DNA of 64,000 nucleotides, taken from NCBI GenBank assembly GCA_964349365.1, contig CAYGFY010000013.1:3729-67728 (forward strand), written 5' to 3'. The stretch comes from an uncultured Bacteroidales bacterium. GTDB lineage: Bacteria; Bacteroidota; Bacteroidia; Bacteroidales; UBA7960. Shown here piece after piece: positions 38,708 through 64,000 of this stretch. A program made the translations under genes and the position numbers. Below the pieces are notes generated by a model. That model saw only the letters and a list, made by a program, of their open reading frames with translations, made no database searches and was not told where the DNA came from. Within the stretch, counting starts at the first letter, position 1; every line of letters begins with the position of its first letter.

Positions 38708-38900
38708 AAAGTGAAAAGTAAAAAGTAATTGGTGATTGGTGACAAAAAAGAGTTTAAATGTTTTTAAGTTTTATGGTTTAAACGATTAAACATTTCAACC
38801 TTGAAACCCTCTTCAATTCGTAATTCTCAATTGTCATTCGTTAATCGTTAATATCTCAATCGTTCCATCTCTCCATCGTTCAATCGTTTCCTCGCTCTCT
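38689..38900 (+). repeat. composite skewed-word element, copy A (heptamer GTGAAAA array + GGTGATTGG + AACGATTAAAC...CTCTTCAATTCGTAATTC + CAATCGTT words)
   Basis: Its core 38727-38832 aligns with 44150-44290 and with the reverse complement of 57896-58030. The left half is nearly C-free and the right half is G-poor. Confidence 0.85.
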
Positions 38901-43586: not shown

Positions 43587-43819
43587 TTTTAAAAGTTTTA
43601 AGAGTTTAAATGTTTAAAAAGTTGATACGTAGAGGGTTATTTGGGTTTGCGGTCATTTATGGTAGGTTGCACATGGCAACATTAAGCAAAATTATAGCTC
43701 ATGGCACAAAGCAGGTGTCGATGGTCTGTTTTTGCAATTTCAATATTGAGTTGTATTTATTACCAATCAACAATCAATCGCCGTTTAGCTTTTTGCCCTT
43801 GGCCATAACCACAAAAAAA

Positions 43820-43914
43820 GGGTAAGCTTAATATCGCACCGCTACGACCGCCTACCCTTGCTACCTTCCGATCCTGGGGGAGTTCAGCGGGAGCTGGTCG
43901 TATCAACCTTACCC
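43820..43914 (-). ncRNA. ffs: signal recognition particle RNA (small bacterial type)
   Basis: The minus-strand sequence is GGGUAAG..UACGACC...CCCCCAGGAUCGGAAGGUAGCAAGGGUAGGC GGUCGUA...CUUACCC. It has the universal domain IV pattern CAGG..GGAA tetraloop..AGCA. The terminal helix is GGGUAAG/CUUACCC and the inner helix is UACGACC/GGUCGUA. A U-run follows at 43813-43819, and a TACTTTTG -7 box sits 5 nt upstream. Confidence 0.85.
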
Positions 43915-43918
43915 GGTG

Positions 43919-43926
43919 CAAAAGTA
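43919..43926 (-). promoter_or_regulatory. -7 promoter box TACTTTTG for ffs
   Basis: The reverse complement of CAAAAGTA is TACTTTTG, immediately upstream of the predicted 5' end of the SRP RNA. Confidence 0.5.
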
Positions 43927-44094
43927 ATACTTTTTTTTCGAAAATATTATTTTTTAATTGAAAGCAAAAGGTAGATAGTCAAAAAGTTAAAAGTCGGTAG
44001 TTGATCTGTGTAAATCTTTTCGATTACTGGCGGTTCTGTGATGAAACATTTGGTAGTTTGTGATTAATAAGTTGCTGGTTTTCTATCAAAGGCC

Positions 44095-44290
44095 CTTTTT
44101 TACCACAATTACACGAAGCTGAAGCCACGCAATGAACGCAAAGTCAAGAGTGATTGGTAATTGGTGATTGGTAAAAAAAAAGTTAATTGTTTTAAAGTTC
44201 TAAACGATTAAACCTTTCAACCTTAAAACCCTCTTCAAATCGCAATTCGCAATTTTTAATTCTCATTTGTTCATTCTCAATTCTCAATTA
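44095..44290 (+). repeat. composite skewed-word element, copy B (long form)
   Basis: The sequence is TTTTACCACAATTACACGAAGCTGAAGCCACGCAATGAACGCAAAGTCAAGAGTGATTGGTAATTGGTGATTGGTAAAAAAA...AACGATTAAACCTTTCAACCTTAAAACCCTCTTCAAATCGCAATTCGC. It aligns along its length with the reverse complement of 57896-58078. Confidence 0.88.
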
Positions 44291-44308
44291 AAATTTGCGG
44301 TTTTTGGT

Positions 44309-57316: not shown

Positions 57317-57324
57317 TATATTTG
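57317..57324 (+). promoter_or_regulatory. -7 promoter box TATATTTG upstream of the NuoE-like gene
   Basis: Exact TAnnTTTG match. It favours the ATG at 57368 over the TTG at 57338 as the start. Confidence 0.45.
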
Positions 57325-57367
57325 TCCATAAAATTGTTTGAAACCCCTCAACGATAATAATTGTCAA

Positions 57368-57886
57368 ATGCGTGTAAAAAGAATTGCCCCGCTATACGAA
57401 GTCAAAACCGAAACCGCTCCCATTGACCTTGCTCTCATTGACCCCATTTTGGAAAAGTACAAGGGGGAGGCCGGAAACCTGATACCCCTGCTTCAGGGCA
57501 CACAGGAGGCATTGGGGTTCATTCCAAGGGAGGCATTGGTGAAAATTAGCCGGGAAACAGGCATCCCAATTACCGACCTTTACGGTGTGGCAACCTTTTA
57601 CGCACAATTCAAGCTTGTGCCCAGAGGCAAGTACATTATAAAAATGTGCCACGGTACTGCCTGCCACGTGCAAACCGTGCACGAAGTAACAAACCAATTA
57701 CTTGATTTTTTGGAAATAAAAGATGGGGAAACAACCGCCAACGGCTTGTTTACCCTCGAAACAGTAGCTTGCCTCGGTTGCTGCTCTCTGGCACCTGTAA
57801 TGATGATTAACGAAGACACGCACGGAAAGCTCACACCGGCGCAGGGGCTGAAGATTGTGAAGGAAATAAAACGCTCTAATCATTAA
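57368..57886 (+). CDS. NuoE/HydC/HndA-type thioredoxin-like [2Fe-2S] subunit
   Basis: The cluster ligand pattern is CHGTACHV ... CLGCCSLAPVMMI. The start could alternatively be at 57338. Confidence 0.88.
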   Translation: MRVKRIAPLYEVKTETAPIDLALIDPILEKYKGEAGNLIPLLQGTQEALGFIPREALVKISRETGIPITDLYGVATFYAQFKLVPRGKYIIKMCHGTACHVQTVHEVTNQLLDFLEIKDGETTANGLFTLETVACLGCCSLAPVMMINEDTHGKLTPAQGLKIVKEIKRSNH

Positions 57887-57895
57887 TGGTTAATG

Positions 57896-58078
57896 GACAA
57901 TTGAGAATTACTAATTACGAATTGAAGAGGGTTTCAAGCTTGAAATGTTAATAGCTTAAAACTTTAAAACTTTAAAACTTTAAAACAATTAAACTCTTTT
58001 TTTACCAATCACCAATTACTAATCACTCTTGACTTAGCGTTCATTACGTGGCTTTAGCTTCTTGTAATTGTGGTAAAA
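57896..58078 (-). repeat. composite skewed-word element, copy C (long form, inverted) between the NuoE-like and NuoF-like genes
   Basis: Its reverse complement aligns with 44095-44290. It contains a local tandem AAAACTTT x3.5 at 57957-57986. Confidence 0.88.
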
Positions 58079-58165
58079 ATGGCTTTTGATTGATGGCTAA
58101 CGATTCATTAACCGCAGATTAACACCGACCGGCTATTGCCATAATACTTTGAACTCTTAACCAAT

Positions 58166-59944
58166 ATGAGCAAAACAACCATTATTGTTGGGCTTGGGAG
58201 CTGCGGTATTGCCGCGGGGGCTTCAAAAACATACGCCGAGCTCGAAAGGATCAAAAGTGCCGACAAACTGGATTTCGAGCTTAAAAAAACCAGTTGCGTG
58301 GGCATGTGCTTCCGCGAGCCACTGGTTGAGGTCATTGACGAATCTGGAACTTACCTTTACGGAAACGTAGATCCCGAAAGGGTCGACGAAATAATTGACA
58401 AGCACGTCAAGAACTTCTCGCCAATTCATGATTACATCGTACATGGCAAGAACCTCCAAACCGCCGATGATGGATTTTTTGAAGGCCAGGTAAAGATTGC
58501 CCTGAAAAACTGCGGTTTTATAGACCCGGAGAAAATAGAAGAGTACGAAGCCAACGGCGGCTACGATGCAATACGAATGATAGCCGACGGATCAATTGAC
58601 CAGGACAGGGTAATACAAATGATAATAGATTCCGGCTTGCGTGGCCGAGGGGGTGGCGGCTTTCCAACCGGAATGAAATGGCGGCTTGCACGCAACGCAA
58701 AAAGCGAAAAAAAATACGTTATCTGCAATGCCGACGAGGGCGACCCCGGAGCGTTCATGGACAGGTCAATCCTTGAAGGCGACCCTCATGGAGTGCTCGA
58801 AGGGATGATTATTTGCGGATACTCAATAGGAGCTTGCGTGGGCTACATATATTGCAGGGCCGAATACCCGCTGGCAATAAAACGGCTAAACGTTGCAATT
58901 GGTCAGGCGCGAGAAAAAGGTTACCTCGGAAAAAACATTTTCGGCATGGTGGGATTTGACTTCGATATAATAATAAAAGAGGGTGCAGGCGCATTCGTTT
59001 GTGGAGAGGAAACAGCACTTATTGCTTCTATCGAAGGTAAACGTGGCATGCCGCGCAAACGTCCGCCATTTCCGGCTAACTCGGGCTTGTGGAGGTATCC
59101 TACTAACATAAATAACGTTGAAACCTTCGTTAACATTCCGCGAATAATACTTGAAGGCCCTGAAAAATATGCAGCGCTTGGCACCGAAAAAAGCAAGGGA
59201 ACCAAGGTATTTGCCCTCACGGGAAAAATAAAACGGGGCGGTTTGGTTGAAGTTCCCATGGGAATTAGCATCAAGGATGTGATTTACAAGCTTGGTGGCG
59301 GTATAGTTGCCGACAAAAAGTTCAAGGCAGTGCAACTCGGAGGCCCTTCTGGCGGATGCTTGCCCGAGTACCTCTCTGATACCAGGGTTGATTACGATTC
59401 GGTAAACGCCACCGGTGCCATCATGGGTTCGGGGGGTATGGTAGTCATGGACGAAACCACCTGCGTGGTTGACATTGCTAGGTTCTTTTTGGATTTTACT
59501 TGCAAGGAATCGTGCGGCAAGTGTACATTTTGTCGCATTGGCACCAAGCGAATGCTGGAAATCTTGACCCGGATAACCCAGGGCGAAGGCAAGGAAGGCG
59601 ACATTGAACTGCTCGAGGAACTTTCTACCACCATCAAGAACAACTCGCTTTGCGGACTGGGCCAAACGGCACCAAACCCGGTGCTCACAACAATAAAGTA
59701 TTTCCGAACAGAATACGAGGCCCACATTAACAACAAGAAGTGCCCGGCGTTGAGTTGCAAGAAGCTACTAACATACACCATAAACAAGAAAGCTTGCACC
59801 GGCTGCACCGCTTGCGCCAGAGGCTGCCCTGTAACGGCAATCATCGGCGAGAAAAGGATGCCACACGAAGTATCGCAAGAAATCTGCATCAAATGCGGAA
59901 TTTGCTACACCAAGTGCAAGTTTGGGGCTATAGTTTTAAGTTGA
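58166..59944 (+). CDS. NuoF/HydB/HndC-type NAD(H)- and FMN-binding iron-sulfur subunit with C-terminal 2x[4Fe-4S] ferredoxin domain
   Basis: 592-aa ORF with GRGGGGFPTGMKW, CNADEGDPGAFMDR, ESCGKCTFCRIG...CGLG, and a C-terminal CTGCTACARGCP and CIKCGICYTKC. It has an N-terminal thioredoxin-like domain. Confidence 0.9.
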   Translation: MSKTTIIVGLGSCGIAAGASKTYAELERIKSADKLDFELKKTSCVGMCFREPLVEVIDESGTYLYGNVDPERVDEIIDKHVKNFSPIHDYIVHGKNLQTADDGFFEGQVKIALKNCGFIDPEKIEEYEANGGYDAIRMIADGSIDQDRVIQMIIDSGLRGRGGGGFPTGMKWRLARNAKSEKKYVICNADEGDPGAFMDRSILEGDPHGVLEGMIICGYSIGACVGYIYCRAEYPLAIKRLNVAIGQAREKGYLGKNIFGMVGFDFDIIIKEGAGAFVCGEETALIASIEGKRGMPRKRPPFPANSGLWRYPTNINNVETFVNIPRIILEGPEKYAALGTEKSKGTKVFALTGKIKRGGLVEVPMGISIKDVIYKLGGGIVADKKFKAVQLGGPSGGCLPEYLSDTRVDYDSVNATGAIMGSGGMVVMDETTCVVDIARFFLDFTCKESCGKCTFCRIGTKRMLEILTRITQGEGKEGDIELLEELSTTIKNNSLCGLGQTAPNPVLTTIKYFRTEYEAHINNKKCPALSCKKLLTYTINKKACTGCTACARGCPVTAIIGEKRMPHEVSQEICIKCGICYTKCKFGAIVLS

Positions 59945-60157
59945 TGGACTGATATTTTTATAGGTTGGGGATTTAATGAGGCCTATGAGGTGAATGGTTT
60001 AAAGGTTTAAAAATATGGCTGAGTGGCAATTAAAATGAGAAATGAAAATTTCTGCACGAACTCAGCGCTCCCAGCGTACATGCGGCTAAAAATTACTTTT
60101 TGATCGGGCGATTGGCTTTAAAACATTGCGATAAGAGGAAAAAAATAATTACATTTG

Positions 60158-63100
60158 ATGGATCAACCGAACATTATTCTTAACGGTGAAATTGTTAAAG
60201 GCAACACTGGCGAGACTATTTTAGCCTTGGCTAATCGCTTTTCTGTTGAAATTCCAACCCTTTGCAACGATCCACGGCTGGAGCCGTACTCGTCGTGTTA
60301 TGTTTGCGTGGTGGAAATTGAAGGTATGCGCAACCTGCAGCCTGCCTGCTCAACCACCCTCGCAGAGGGGATGAGAATTAGCACCAACAACCAACGCGTA
60401 AGGAATTCGCGCAAAATGGCTCTGGAGCTGATGGCAAGTAACCATTACGCCGACTGCCTTGCCCCATGCCGCGAAACTTGTCCTGCGGGGGTTGACGTGC
60501 AAGGTTACATTTCGATGATTAGCAAGGGTAAACACCGCGAGGCTGTTGAAATCATCAAGGAAACCAACCCGTTGCCAGCAATTTGCGGAAGAGTGTGCGT
60601 GAGACCCTGCGAGGTGGCTTGTCGTCGTAATCTTGTTGAAAATACAGGCGTTGGCATTGACTACCTCAAAAGGTTTTCGGCAGATATTGACCTGGAATCC
60701 CCCGATAGGTTCGTACCAACCAAAAAACCCGCCACCGGCAAGAAAGTAGCCATTATAGGTGCCGGGCCCGGGGGGCTTTCGGCAGCATTTTTCCTGGCAA
60801 GGGAAGGCCACGAGGTTGAAGTTTTCGAGGCCAGCAAGCACGCCGGAGGAATGCTAAGGTACGGCATTCCTCCCTACAGGCTTCCAAATGTTATTATTGA
60901 CAAGGAAGTGGAAGGGATAACCGCCCTGGGTGTAAAGATTCACTTTGAAAAAAAGCTTGGAGAAAACCTTAGCTACAAAGACTTGCAAGAAAATTTTGAT
61001 GCAGTGATACTTGCCATCGGGTCGCAAAGCGGTACCCGAATTGGTTGCGAGAACGATGATGCCGGAAACATCTTTTCGGGTATAGACTTCTTGCGAAATA
61101 TGGAAGTTAGTGGCCAAAAGTACGATTTCAGCGGTAAGAAAGTGGGGGTAATTGGGGGCGGGAATACCGCCATGGATTGCTGCCGCACGGCAATTCGCTG
61201 CGGTGCCAAGGAGGTAATGATTATTTACCGTCGTACCGAAAAGGAGATGCCTGCCAATCCCATCGAAATTCATGAATCGAAGCTTGAGGGAGTCAAGTGC
61301 CTGTTCTTGACGGCTCCCGCAAGGGTAAACAAAAACATTGACGGAAACATCAAGTCGCTCACCTGCTTCAGGATGGAACTCAGCGAGCCCGATGACTCGG
61401 GGCGCCGCAGGCCGGTGAAGATTGACGGCTCCGACTTTGACGTACCGTTGGATGTTGTCCTTGCCGCAATAGGCCAGAAAACAGACGTTAATTTCATTGA
61501 CGACATAAACAAGCACGCCCCCGCAGAGCTTGTAATAAACCGTTGGGGCGACATTGAGGCCAATCCCAAAACTCTTCAAACTTCGATAGAAAAGGTGTTT
61601 GCCTGCGGCGATGGGGTAACCGGCCCCGAAACGCTAATTGAAGCAATTGCACACGGCAAGCTTGCAGCCCAAAGTTGCAACAAGTACCTCCGGGGCGAGG
61701 TCATAACTCCCCCCACCTACGAGTTCTTGAGCCGCAAGGAAAACTTTCGCAGACAGGCAAGAAACGATTTCGAGGCGTGGTTCGAGAAGCAAGAGCGTGA
61801 AGAAATGCCCACAGTTAACCCGACAGAGCGCGGCAACTTCGACGAAGTGGAACTTGGCTACACCATACAGGCGGCCATGAACGAAACCAACCGCTGCATG
61901 GAGTGCGGTTGCAGCGAGCTTTACACTTGCAACCTGAAGAAATACTGCACCGAGTACGGTGCCCATCAGAAAAGGTACCAGGGCGAATTCAAGGAATACA
62001 AGGTGAAGTTCGATCACCCGCTGGTGGAAATCGACAACAACAAGTGCATACTTTGCAGCCGCTGCATAAGGATTTGTTCCGAAGTGGTTGGTGCCAACGC
62101 CCTGGGGCTCATAAACCGCGGCTTCGACACCTACGTTGCGCCCAGCCTTGGCGAGTCGCTGCTGCACACCCAGTGCGAAAGCTGCGGAATGTGTATTGAC
62201 ACCTGTCCCACGGGTGCCATTACCGAAAACGTGAACCACAAGCCGATGCCGCTGAAGCTCAACTCGTTTACCACCATTTGCAACTACTGCTCGGTAGGCT
62301 GCACGGTGGAACTGCACCACAAGTCGGGCTACTTTGCCCGCGCCACCGGTGCCAACGGCCTCATTAACAAGGATGCCAGCCTTTGCGGGATGGGCAAGTT
62401 TGGCTACCGCCTCCTCAACAATCCGCAGCGCGTTACCAAGCCGTTGCTCAAGGTAAAGGGCTCTTTCGAGGAAATCTCTTTCGAGGAAGCCCTTGCATTG
62501 ATTACCGACAAGTTAAAGGCCGTTGAACCCTCTCAAAATGTGTTCTTTGCAGGTGCGAGGCTTACCAACGAGGAGCAATACCTGATTCAAAAACTTGCCA
62601 GGGCGGTGGTCAAGACCAACAACGTGGGGAGCCTTGCAAATGCCCTTTCCGACAAGGTAAACCATATTGCGGCAATGACCCAAACGCCCTTCGAGCAGAT
62701 GGGCAAGGTGAAGAACTTTTTCATTTTCGGCGGAAGCCTGAATCTCCAAAACGGCGTGGTGGGCTTTTACATAAACAACCAACGGGTGGTGGGCAAGGCA
62801 CGGGTGAGCCTGGTTACCAAGGCCGAGCACAACGCCATTGGCCACAAGGCCGACAAAACCACCATTATTGACTCGTACTACCATTTTGCCCGGGCCGCCA
62901 ACCACCACGTCATTAGCCAAGCCCTGCACAACGCCCGCTACCTGACCGACCATTGCGTGGGGTTCGACCATTACAGCAAGGCCATTATGGCTGAGGATTT
63001 CGACGCGCTGGTGCAAAAGGCCGGTTGCAGCAAGGAAGATGTTGCCACTTTCGTGGAAAGCTTAAACGCCGAGCACCAATCTGTAATTGTGGTGCCACCA

Positions 63101-63835
63101 GCCACCGTGGGACACAATACCGCCGTGGAACTTTACAACCTGGCACTGATAACCGGAAAGGTGGGCAAGGAAGGAGCTGGAATCATGGTGCTGCAACCAA
63201 AGAACAACTCGCAGGGATTGGCCGACAACGGGCAGTCGCCAAACCTTGCACCCGGTGGCACAGAATGCGCCCAAAGCATTGCTTTGCTGAAAGAAACGTG
63301 GAACGTTGATGGGCTACCAAGTGAAACCACCCTAAACCCCGTTAAACTGCTCGAAAATGGGTCTGCCAAAAACTGCTTCATATTTGCCGAAGACCCCGTG
63401 GGCACTTCCACCAACCCCGATGCCGTGGCCAAGTGGCTGCAAAAAGCCGACTTCAAGGTGGTGCAAGACCTGTTCGTAACCCCAACGGCACAACTGGCAG
63501 ATCTGATACTGCCCGCCTCGCTCCACTTCGAAACTGGCGGCAGCTTCACCAACACCCAAAGGTACATACAGCAGTTCGACCCACAAATACCCTCGAAAAT
63601 AGAGCTAAACTCACTGCAACAAATTACCACCCTGGCCAACAACCTCGGCGAAAACTGGCCCAACCCAACCCCAGCAACGGTACTGCAAGAGATAACCTCA
63701 ATCATGGGCAAACTCCCAAAACCCGATGGAAAGCACCAGATTATCTTTACCAAGGAAGAAGAAAAAGAGGGGGTTTTGTATAACTTTGGAGGTGATTATT
63801 TGCAATGGCAGGCCGCGAACGACTTGTGGAAGTAG
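60158..63835 (+). CDS. fusion oxidoreductase: 2Fe-2S ferredoxin domain + GltD-like NAD(P)H/FAD module + NuoG/FdhA-type Fe-S region + truncated molybdopterin-oxidoreductase (MopB) domain lacking the Fdh catalytic dyad
   Basis: The N-terminus is CNDPRLEPYSSCYVCVVE...PACST. The GltD-like module has CRETCPAG..NPLPAICGRVCVRPCEVAC, VAIIGAGPGGLSAAFFLA, VGVIGGGNTAMDCCRTA..IIYRR and ACGDG. Fe-S motifs are CILCSRCIRIC and CESCGMCIDTCP. The MopB cluster motif is ICNYCSVGC. KTNNVGSLANALSDKV sits where Fdh enzymes carry Sec/Cys-His. Confidence 0.85.
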   Translation: MDQPNIILNGEIVKGNTGETILALANRFSVEIPTLCNDPRLEPYSSCYVCVVEIEGMRNLQPACSTTLAEGMRISTNNQRVRNSRKMALELMASNHYADCLAPCRETCPAGVDVQGYISMISKGKHREAVEIIKETNPLPAICGRVCVRPCEVACRRNLVENTGVGIDYLKRFSADIDLESPDRFVPTKKPATGKKVAIIGAGPGGLSAAFFLAREGHEVEVFEASKHAGGMLRYGIPPYRLPNVIIDKEVEGITALGVKIHFEKKLGENLSYKDLQENFDAVILAIGSQSGTRIGCENDDAGNIFSGIDFLRNMEVSGQKYDFSGKKVGVIGGGNTAMDCCRTAIRCGAKEVMIIYRRTEKEMPANPIEIHESKLEGVKCLFLTAPARVNKNIDGNIKSLTCFRMELSEPDDSGRRRPVKIDGSDFDVPLDVVLAAIGQKTDVNFIDDINKHAPAELVINRWGDIEANPKTLQTSIEKVFACGDGVTGPETLIEAIAHGKLAAQSCNKYLRGEVITPPTYEFLSRKENFRRQARNDFEAWFEKQEREEMPTVNPTERGNFDEVELGYTIQAAMNETNRCMECGCSELYTCNLKKYCTEYGAHQKRYQGEFKEYKVKFDHPLVEIDNNKCILCSRCIRICSEVVGANALGLINRGFDTYVAPSLGESLLHTQCESCGMCIDTCPTGAITENVNHKPMPLKLNSFTTICNYCSVGCTVELHHKSGYFARATGANGLINKDASLCGMGKFGYRLLNNPQRVTKPLLKVKGSFEEISFEEALALITDKLKAVEPSQNVFFAGARLTNEEQYLIQKLARAVVKTNNVGSLANALSDKVNHIAAMTQTPFEQMGKVKNFFIFGGSLNLQNGVVGFYINNQRVVGKARVSLVTKAEHNAIGHKADKTTIIDSYYHFARAANHHVISQALHNARYLTDHCVGFDHYSKAIMAEDFDALVQKAGCSKEDVATFVESLNAEHQSVIVVPPATVGHNTAVELYNLALITGKVGKEGAGIMVLQPKNNSQGLADNGQSPNLAPGGTECAQSIALLKETWNVDGLPSETTLNPVKLLENGSAKNCFIFAEDPVGTSTNPDAVAKWLQKADFKVVQDLFVTPTAQLADLILPASLHFETGGSFTNTQRYIQQFDPQIPSKIELNSLQQITTLANNLGENWPNPTPATVLQEITSIMGKLPKPDGKHQIIFTKEEEKEGVLYNFGGDYLQWQAANDLWK

Positions 63836-64000
63836 CAGATTTTTGAGGATGGTTAGATTTTTTTCGGGTAATGCGTTAACGATTGGTGGTGAAATTTATT
63901 TTCTTTTATATTACTCCGGGGCATCAACCTGAAGGGGAAGTAGGCCGCGGTATTTACAAATCTGCCTTTTACTGGATTGGTGATTGAACGGTTGAAATCG

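Follow-up and report, generated by a model that had tools for sequence, protein, structure and literature searches.

A predicted NfnABC/Stn-type (Nfn-Bfu) transhydrogenase operon in an uncultured Bacteroidales bacterium

Which enzyme is encoded by three adjacent genes for a NuoE-like protein, a NuoF-like protein, and a large fusion protein near the end of a 64,000-nucleotide stretch of metagenomic DNA from an uncultured Bacteroidales bacterium (GenBank contig CAYGFY010000013.1, positions 3,729 to 67,728; the whole stretch is hereafter called the window)? An initial annotation, made from the sequence alone, described the genes as co-directional, in agreement with the open reading frame (ORF) listing (adjacent ORFs at 57338/57368-57886, 58166-59944, and 60155/60158-63835). 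It saw in the product a candidate bifurcating NADH/NADPH/ferredoxin transhydrogenase composed of a NuoEF core, a GltD-like module, and a cofactor-less MopB scaffold, in an architecture unmatched by any characterized enzyme. We report here that the locus is very probably a three-gene nfnCBA operon (= stnABC, Type 1 Nfn-Bfu), judging by its likeness to enzymes of solved structure. The function proposed earlier agrees with that of these homologues and remains a prediction for the window, but the architecture is not new.

In a phmmer sequence search of all Protein Data Bank (PDB) chains, the top three matches of each of the three proteins were subunits of the same three enzymes: Caldicellulosiruptor saccharolyticus (Csac) NfnABC (9BOV/9BP5; PMC11829005), Sporomusa ovata StnABC (8OH5/8OH9; PMC10482914), and Thermococcus sibiricus NfnABC (9N5U/9N5V; PMC12018979). 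The Sporomusa-type Nfn (StnABC) was purified in 2020 (PMC7483475), and structures of NfnABC/Stn enzymes by electron cryomicroscopy (cryo-EM) were published in 2023 and 2025 (8OH5, 9BOV, 9N5U; PMC10482914, PMC11829005, PMC12018979). Schut et al. (2022) assigned the S. ovata-type enzyme to Type 1 Nfn-Bfu within the Bfu family, and the occurrence of Nfn-Bfu in Bacteroidetes was already noted in 2022. For the enzymes of S. ovata, C. saccharolyticus, and T. sibiricus, coupling of NADPH oxidation to the reduction of NAD+ and ferredoxin has been demonstrated biochemically. The claim of a new architecture fails because StnC, of 1,172 amino acids, has the same published domain order: a [2Fe-2S] hydrogenase-like domain (residues 1-101), a GltD fold (102-565), NuoG clusters, and a "catalytically inactive" FdhF-like domain (683-1172; PMC10482914). 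The three-subunit order is likewise identical in StnABC/NfnABC, and the fusion, which had been supposed not yet to be biochemically characterized, is represented by the published S. ovata, Csac, and T. sibiricus enzymes. The locus is, in other words, a Bacteroidales member of a biochemically and structurally characterized family whose three-subunit architecture is already known. Every defining feature of Nfn-Bfu that can be read from sequence is present; activity, direction, oligomeric state, and co-transcription are inferred.

The two smaller subunits contain all parts of the bifurcating core. The nfnC protein matches PF01257 (Pfam, E=2.8e-47), and its best PDB matches are 9bov_C (E=3.5e-56), 9n5u_C (E=9e-50), and 8oh5_A (E=3e-48). 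The nfnB protein has a weak N-terminal PF01257 match followed by PF01512, PF10531 (SLBB), PF10589, and a C-terminal 2x Fer4, and aligns over its full length with 8oh5_B (851 bits), 9n5u_B (846 bits), and 9bov_B (840 bits). Besides the B1 [4Fe-4S] site, it has a thioredoxin-like domain at the N terminus (B5 site), a linker with His and Cys residues (Zn, B2 site), and, at the C terminus, a 2x[4Fe-4S] domain for ferredoxin docking (B3/B4). In a residue-by-residue alignment with StnB, T. sibiricus NfnB, and Csac NfnB, every Cys/His motif is kept: the N-terminal trio of Cys, the ligands of B1, the two C-terminal 4Fe-4S motifs, and the H...C...C linker, which binds Zn in the solved homologue structures. 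The FMN/NADH motifs are kept as well. Together with the C-subunit [2Fe-2S], these domains complete the core formed by the B and C subunits of bifurcating members (BC core). Against the NuoF models of NCBIfam, the window proteins score under the curated cut-offs.

The large subunit, encoded by nfnA, is a single polypeptide with the nuoE- and nuoF-like genes upstream. Its Pfam domains follow in the order PF13510, PF14691, PF07992, PF22117, PF04879, and PF00384. The best PDB matches are 9bov_A (772 bits, E≈1e-230), 8oh5_C (721 bits, E=2e-215), and 9n5u_A (559 bits, E=3e-166); the phmmer alignments are colinear with 9bov_A across residues 14-1165 and also with 8oh5_C. The NCBIfam model PRK12814 ("putative NADPH-dependent glutamate synthase small subunit") spans residues 2-644, and nfnA scores under the curated cut-offs of the NuoG and Fdh-alpha NCBIfam models. 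The cysteine map comprises one [2Fe-2S] site (C37/48/51/65) and six [4Fe-4S] sites, a complement equal to that of Csac NfnA. The cysteine motifs of the GltD-like module, an insertion of 465 amino acids, are H97-x3-C101-x3-C105-x3-C109-P and C144/148/152/156. In Csac NfnA, the A7 cluster is ligated by Cys108, Cys147, Cys151, and Lys170 (PMC11829005). Opposite these residues stand C109, C148, C152, and K172 of the window protein, and the A7 ligand residues of the module are invariant in 11 relatives. By comparison with Csac NfnA, the FAD site (IIGAGPGG) and the NADPH site (IGGGNTA and YRR) are also kept, and the module contains ACGDG. The NuoG-type region (PF22117) has the motifs C581-x2-C584-x-C586-x5-C592, CILCSRCIRIC, and CESCGMCIDTCP, with all ligands kept relative to Csac NfnA and invariant in the alignment of 11 relatives. 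The H-x3-C-x3-C-x3-CP and C-x2-C-x-C-x5-C motifs known from Stn/Nso both occur in nfnA.

Of the characterized enzymes, Csac NfnABC shares three subunits in identical domain order, is the top PDB match for the A and C subunits, and agrees in its cluster ligands, including the Cys3-Lys A7 site and the Cys/His pattern of the B subunit; its Fdh-like domain is free of pterin. It comes from a thermophilic member of the Firmicutes and not from a Bacteroidales metagenome-assembled genome (MAG). Its NfnA has 1,178 amino acids versus 1,225 here, the window protein being about 50 residues longer at the C terminus, and the window genes are split by long spacers. The S. ovata genes SOV_1c07740-60 follow the order nuoE-like, nuoF-like, and GltD/NuoG-like (PMC7483475, PMC10482914). 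StnC shows the same domain succession up to its inactive FdhF-like end, and StnB is the best PDB match of the B subunit. Unlike the window genes, whose neighbors are unrelated housekeeping genes, the stn genes of this acetogen adjoin Wood-Ljungdahl genes, and the good phmmer alignment with StnC reaches only residue ~822 of the window protein. The T. sibiricus NfnABC and Thermococcus litoralis NsoABC enzymes (9N5U; PMC12018979, PMC9304861) share the BC core and the succession of an N-terminal domain, an NfnL-like part, and NuoG clusters. However, T. sibiricus NfnA has 963 amino acids (~200 fewer), a partial Fdh-like domain, and one cluster fewer, and is monomeric, whereas the window protein is of the long bacterial form.

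Several points weigh against this assignment. All assayed members lie outside the Bacteroidota/Ignavibacteria clade, and the identity of the large subunit to homologues from non-Bacteroidota/Ignavibacteria genome loci (tblastn) is moderate in the N-terminal 687 amino acids (~44-50%) and low in the MopB domain (~25-29%). Likeness to the characterized enzymes was measured as phmmer bit scores and not as identity. Moreover, spacers as long as 279 and 213 bp make co-transcription and stoichiometric expression less than certain, and neither the ferredoxin or flavodoxin partner nor the physiological direction is readable from the window.

By analogy with the solved homologues, NADPH would give a hydride to the FAD of the GltD/NfnL-like module in the large subunit. 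Single electrons would then run from A7 (Cys3Lys) through A6, A3, A2, and A1 to B1 and FMN in the NuoF-like subunit. In the Stn/NfnABC enzymes, the site of bifurcation is FMN/B1/C1, and the GltD-like FAD serves only to supply electrons (PMC10482914, PMC11829005). The corresponding "flavobicluster" of the window enzyme would pass one electron pair to NAD+ as hydride. The other, low-potential pair would travel through the mobile NuoE-like [2Fe-2S] C1 domain to the C-terminal 2x[4Fe-4S] clusters B3/B4 and on to ferredoxin. The reaction is expected to be reversible, and in a fermentative Bacteroidales cell its net direction would likely be NADH + reduced ferredoxin + 2 NADP+ -> 2 NADPH. The MopB domain, which in the bacterial homologues mediates tetramerization, would be a cofactor-less structural remnant with a dead-end cluster branch.

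Other transhydrogenases and NuoEF-containing complexes differ from the locus in composition. NfnAB/NfnSL of Thermotoga and Pyrococcus (4YLF, 5JCA) catalyzes an equal net reaction, and NfnL is homologous to residues ~103-515 of the large subunit (E=4e-94, 6e-81). Yet NfnSL bifurcates at the FAD of NfnL and has neither NuoEF-like subunits nor a NuoG/MopB part, and at the window locus there is no NfnS-like gene, the partners being NuoE- and NuoF-like. The locus is also distinct from the N-module of complex I (NuoEFG). No other nuo genes are present within 10 kb on either side, the B subunit has extra Fe-S domains, and the A subunit contains the GltD insertion.

About 7,800 database proteins match nfnA at E<=1e-50. 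The top 120 matches have 1,213-1,252 amino acids, except for one partial sequence of 1,088, and are 56-100% identical; where a source is named, it is a MAG of Bacteroidales, Bacteroidia, or Ignavibacteria. In the GTDB species genomes, at least 592 relatives were confirmed, 80 of which were used for locus comparisons. These 80 span Bacteroidales, Ignavibacteria, Calditrichia, Aminicenantes, Firmicutes, Desulfobacterota, and others. Of the 69 loci that extend far enough upstream, 57 have the order nuoE-nuoF-fusion on the same strand, as do 42 of the 48 long-form loci; the three genes co-occur in other genomes. In a 65%-identical Bacteroides-like relative (L004, 4149-13350), the operon is compact, with gaps of 18 and 28 bp. 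A glutamate dehydrogenase gene lies 5' of it, rubrerythrin is encoded directly at its stop codon, and the opposite strand carries two AhpC/redoxin genes; these neighbors hint that the operon may be tied to nitrogen assimilation, which consumes NADPH, or to defense against oxidative stress. Fusions of Shewanella and Aliivibrio are among the exceptions. Five loci, L055, L056, L058 (Shewanella), L060 (Aliivibrio), and L062, encode full-length fusion homologues of 33-35% identity that align with query residues ~5-1182. No NuoE/NuoF-like gene is located within 6 kb of them, and they are stand-alone fused SfrB-SfrA-like proteins without a bifurcating core.

These observations, and the activities of some homologues, bear on the possibility that the product is a non-bifurcating NAD(P)H oxidoreductase with another acceptor, such as sulfur/polysulfide, O2, Fe(III), or a quinone. 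Such activities were assigned to two homologues, T. litoralis NsoABC and SfrAB, a soluble NADPH-dependent Fe(III) reductase of Geobacter sulfurreducens. According to published descriptions, through which SfrAB was compared here, SfrB corresponds to the 2Fe-2S and GltD part and SfrA to the NuoG/MopB part. The earlier view of the large subunit as a fused SfrB-SfrA pair holds at the level of domain homology, a resemblance that the published Stn/Nfn papers already discuss. However, SfrAB consists of two subunits and lacks a NuoE/NuoF-type core, whereas the window encodes one polypeptide preceded by nuoE- and nuoF-like genes and does not belong to the SfrAB type. The proximity of rubrerythrin and AhpC/redoxin genes to one relative's operon and the stand-alone fusions of Shewanella and Aliivibrio speak for another acceptor. 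By contrast, the window has the full Bfu core (N-terminal domain of B, Zn linker, C-terminal 2x[4Fe-4S], and C subunit), which is the hallmark of bifurcating members. The close characterized homologues carrying this core all bifurcate, and there are no oxidative-stress neighbors in the window. A non-bifurcating enzyme is consequently unlikely.

The long spacers raise the question of whether the operon is still functional. With the start codons called on identical public contigs (ATG 57368 for nfnC and ATG 60158 for nfnA), the spacers have exactly the lengths given in the initial annotation, which called both of them repeat-laden. This description holds for spacer 1, with its tandem units and dispersed repeat, but not for spacer 2, in which there are no direct repeats. 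Spacer 1 contains, at positions 57892-58093 (+), one copy of a dispersed repeat, intergenic and ~120-210 nt long. The repeat consists of a core GAATTGAAGAGGGTTTCAAGGTTGAAA, imperfect 8-nt tandem units (consensus TTAAAACT), and then TTTACCAATCACCAATTAC; spacer 1 has four 8-nt tandem units (D1), with copies 71-75% identical to the reference. The repeat has at least four copies (see the table), two of these four between subunit genes (nfnC-nfnB and the split transketolase), and the copy at 44082-44291 sits ~160 nt upstream of a signal recognition particle (SRP) RNA gene. Spacer 2 contains one short inverted repeat, a pair of 12-nt arms at 59993-60004 and 60116-60127, and no repeat copy of it was found elsewhere.

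An operon broken by insertion of the repeat, with genes independently expressed or decaying and no functional complex formed, would account for spacers far longer than the gaps of 10-50 bp in most relatives (a few have 100-1,700 bp), for the inserted repeat in spacer 1, and for a promoter-like TAnnTTTG motif at 60150 just ahead of nfnA. Nevertheless, this scenario is very unlikely. None of the three ORFs is disrupted and no ligand is lost, and the same sequence was recovered in several independent metagenome assemblies. Intact genes also go with spacers of 270 and 142 bp in L006, the nearest genome relative (84-90% protein identity), and neither window spacer contains a + strand terminator-like hairpin, the overall counts of such sites being equal to the shuffled expectation. 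TAnnTTTG is the -7 consensus of Bacteroides promoters. A possible element of this kind is present upstream of nfnC (see the table), and a scan for sigma-70 promoters carries no information in Bacteroidota. The second motif, TACATTTG (60150-60157), overlaps the nfnA start region, is too near the ATG to serve as nfnA promoter, and is probably a chance match.

A conserved regulatory element was considered for the spacers and rejected, as neither spacer aligns with those of L006 (spacer 2 compared with the 142-bp spacer); the dispersed repeat is likewise not found in L006. We also rejected a structured RNA or riboswitch. A search of Rfam over 36-64 kb gave only the SRP RNA and nothing in either spacer, and RNA fold z-scores against shuffles were not significant (-1.5 for spacer 1 and +0.57 for spacer 2). 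The most fitting interpretation of the spacers is insertion specific to this lineage, with no functional role in the system.

The C-terminal MopB domain retains the Molybdop_Fe4S4 cluster (C709/712/716/744), but has lost the catalytic residues of formate dehydrogenases (FDHs). Alignment with FdhF of the hydrogen-dependent CO2 reductase (HDCR; 7qv7_S) places the segment listed in the table opposite NNVDHCARLCHAP, with Leu-Ser in place of the catalytic Cys/Sec-His, and an alignment with Bacillus subtilis YjgC/ForCE1 (8rqz_C) likewise puts Leu-Ser at the dyad. The catalytic Arg (LRGQNNVQG) is Gln (LQPKNNSQG), and the cluster-proximal Lys, two residues past the fourth cluster Cys, is Met (C-G-M-G-K versus C-x-K-G). 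There is no Pfam match to the domain IV cap, Molydop_binding (PF01568), in nfnA; the ORF ends 89 amino acids past FTNTQRY, and alignments with FDHs end ahead of their domain IV. The initial annotation had foreseen the Pfam domain list including this absence, the loss of catalytic residues, and the missing capping domain. Only details shift, the motif occupying 62612-62659 and not 62614-62655, and the tail being somewhat longer than the ~80 residues estimated.

An AlphaFold2 model of residues 689-1226, based on an alignment of 36 sequences, has a mean predicted local distance difference test score (pLDDT) of 86. In a Foldseek search of the PDB, the model matches FDH catalytic subunits with query-normalized template modeling scores (TMq) of 0.80-0.83, 9bov_A with 0.75, and 8oh5_C with 0.73. 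Sequence scores of the C-terminal 538 amino acids are likewise higher with a true FDH (185 bits for HDCR FdhF) than with StnC (115) or Csac NfnA (only 106), and non-Bacteroidota NfnA homologues score 120-206 bits, about equal to the FDH scores. A separate origin of the domain from an FDH was therefore rejected: the scores with NfnA homologues and FDHs are similar, and the domain simply evolves faster. It is the fastest-evolving part of nfnA, changing at about twice the rate of the remainder: it is 49% identical to the 65%-identical relative, versus 78% for the N-terminal 687 residues. Because of this faster divergence, the domain fits a relaxed scaffold that is probably non-catalytic. The Fdh-like domain of Csac NfnA has an incomplete pterin site with nothing bound, and its clusters form a dead-end branch (PMC11829005); the S. 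ovata enzyme lacks formate:methyl viologen activity. The idea that the locus encodes an NAD(P)+-dependent, possibly bifurcating, FDH with a Mo/W-bis(pyranopterin guanine dinucleotide) site (FdhF/FdsA type) can practically be dismissed, even though relatives are annotated by JGI/NCBI as "formate dehydrogenase major subunit" or "molybdopterin-dependent oxidoreductase" and the scores with true FDHs slightly exceed those with StnC and Csac NfnA, given that dyad, Arg, cluster-proximal Lys, and domain IV are all absent from this fast-evolving domain, that the S. ovata enzyme is inactive with formate, and that Csac NfnA has no pterin density.

Coordinates of the operon, its domains, spacers, and repeat copies (positions in the window unless another locus is named)
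Feature	Coordinates	Strand	Description
nfnC / stnA / bfuC	57368..57886	+	NuoE-like thioredoxin-fold [2Fe-2S] subunit, 172 aa; C1 cluster CHGTAC...CLGCC
nfnB / stnB / bfuB	58166..59944	+	NuoF-like FMN/NAD(H) subunit, 592 aa
nfnA / stnC / bfuA	60158..63835	+	Fused large subunit, 1,225 aa counted from ATG
NfnL/GltD-like NADPH module of nfnA	60455..61879	+	aa ~101-575
NuoG-type cluster region of nfnA	61880..62254	+	aa ~576-700
FdhF-like MopB domains I-III of nfnA	62255..63835	+	aa ~701-1226
Pseudo-active-site segment KTNNVGSLANALSDKV in nfnA	62612..62659	+	aa 820-835; Cys/Sec-His -> Leu-Ser
Spacer 1	57887..58165		279 bp, nfnC-nfnB
Spacer 2	59945..60157		213 bp, nfnB-nfnA; unique, A/T-rich, non-coding
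Possible Bacteroidetes-type -7 element TATATTTG	57317..57324	+	TAnnTTTG pattern match only; 44 bp 5' of nfnC ATG
Dispersed repeat copy	44082-44291	-	BLAST/alignment, 90% identity over 124 nt
Dispersed repeat copy	38709-38825	-	BLAST/alignment to spacer 1
Dispersed repeat copy	L001 18991-19104		~5 kb past window, between two split-transketolase genes

The surroundings of the operon agree with a complete gene set in a Bacteroidales genome. An identical public protein (P0001) is found on at least eight metagenome contigs from several independent assemblies. On the longest identical contig, the operon is followed by ~1.1 kb of non-coding sequence and then by unrelated genes on the opposite strand (hypotheticals, an extracytoplasmic function (ECF) sigma factor, a split transketolase, and a penicillin-binding protein). 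The expectation of more subunits beyond position 64000 is not borne out, as there are no further nfn subunit genes past the window edge on identical public contigs. The nearest homologues support a Bacteroidales origin of the window, as does a small SRP RNA of the Bacteroidales type (43816-43921, -; RF04183, 87.6 bits, gathering score 55.2). The GC content of the operon is 0.50, with 0.54-0.63 at third codon positions (GC3) and a GC3 of 0.63-0.75 in the 3' half of nfnA, versus flanks near 0.42. We considered horizontal transfer as a cause of this jump and rejected it. The operon exceeds its flanks by 3-7 GC points in all 12 related loci tested, and because the excess recurs in all of them, it is a property of the family and no evidence of recent transfer.

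The Bacteroidota/Ignavibacteria Nfn-Bfu clade is abundant in metagenomes. It is conceivable, although improbable, that in this clade the MopB domain retains a function lost in Firmicutes, that the enzyme is a main source of NADPH, and that the repeat is a mobile element. Possible retained functions include binding of a nucleotide or pterin-like ligand, docking of flavodoxin or ferredoxin, and service as an electron reservoir, and the dispersed repeat inside the nfn and split-transketolase operons could be a small mobile element with a regulatory effect. If this were true, the enzyme would be the main NADPH source tying ferredoxin derived from pyruvate:ferredoxin oxidoreductase (PFOR) to biosynthesis in anaerobic Bacteroidales. 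The physiological gain from the present assignment is modest, and it opens no new question. Its main value is one of correction, since "formate dehydrogenase major subunit" and "molybdopterin-dependent oxidoreductase" are misleading annotations for this family, and the supposed new architecture would amount to a rediscovery of Stn/NfnABC. Bacteroidales appear to carry a Bfu-type transhydrogenase that would be able to couple the ferredoxin, NADH, and NADPH pools, and its recognition will aid the metabolic reconstruction of MAGs.

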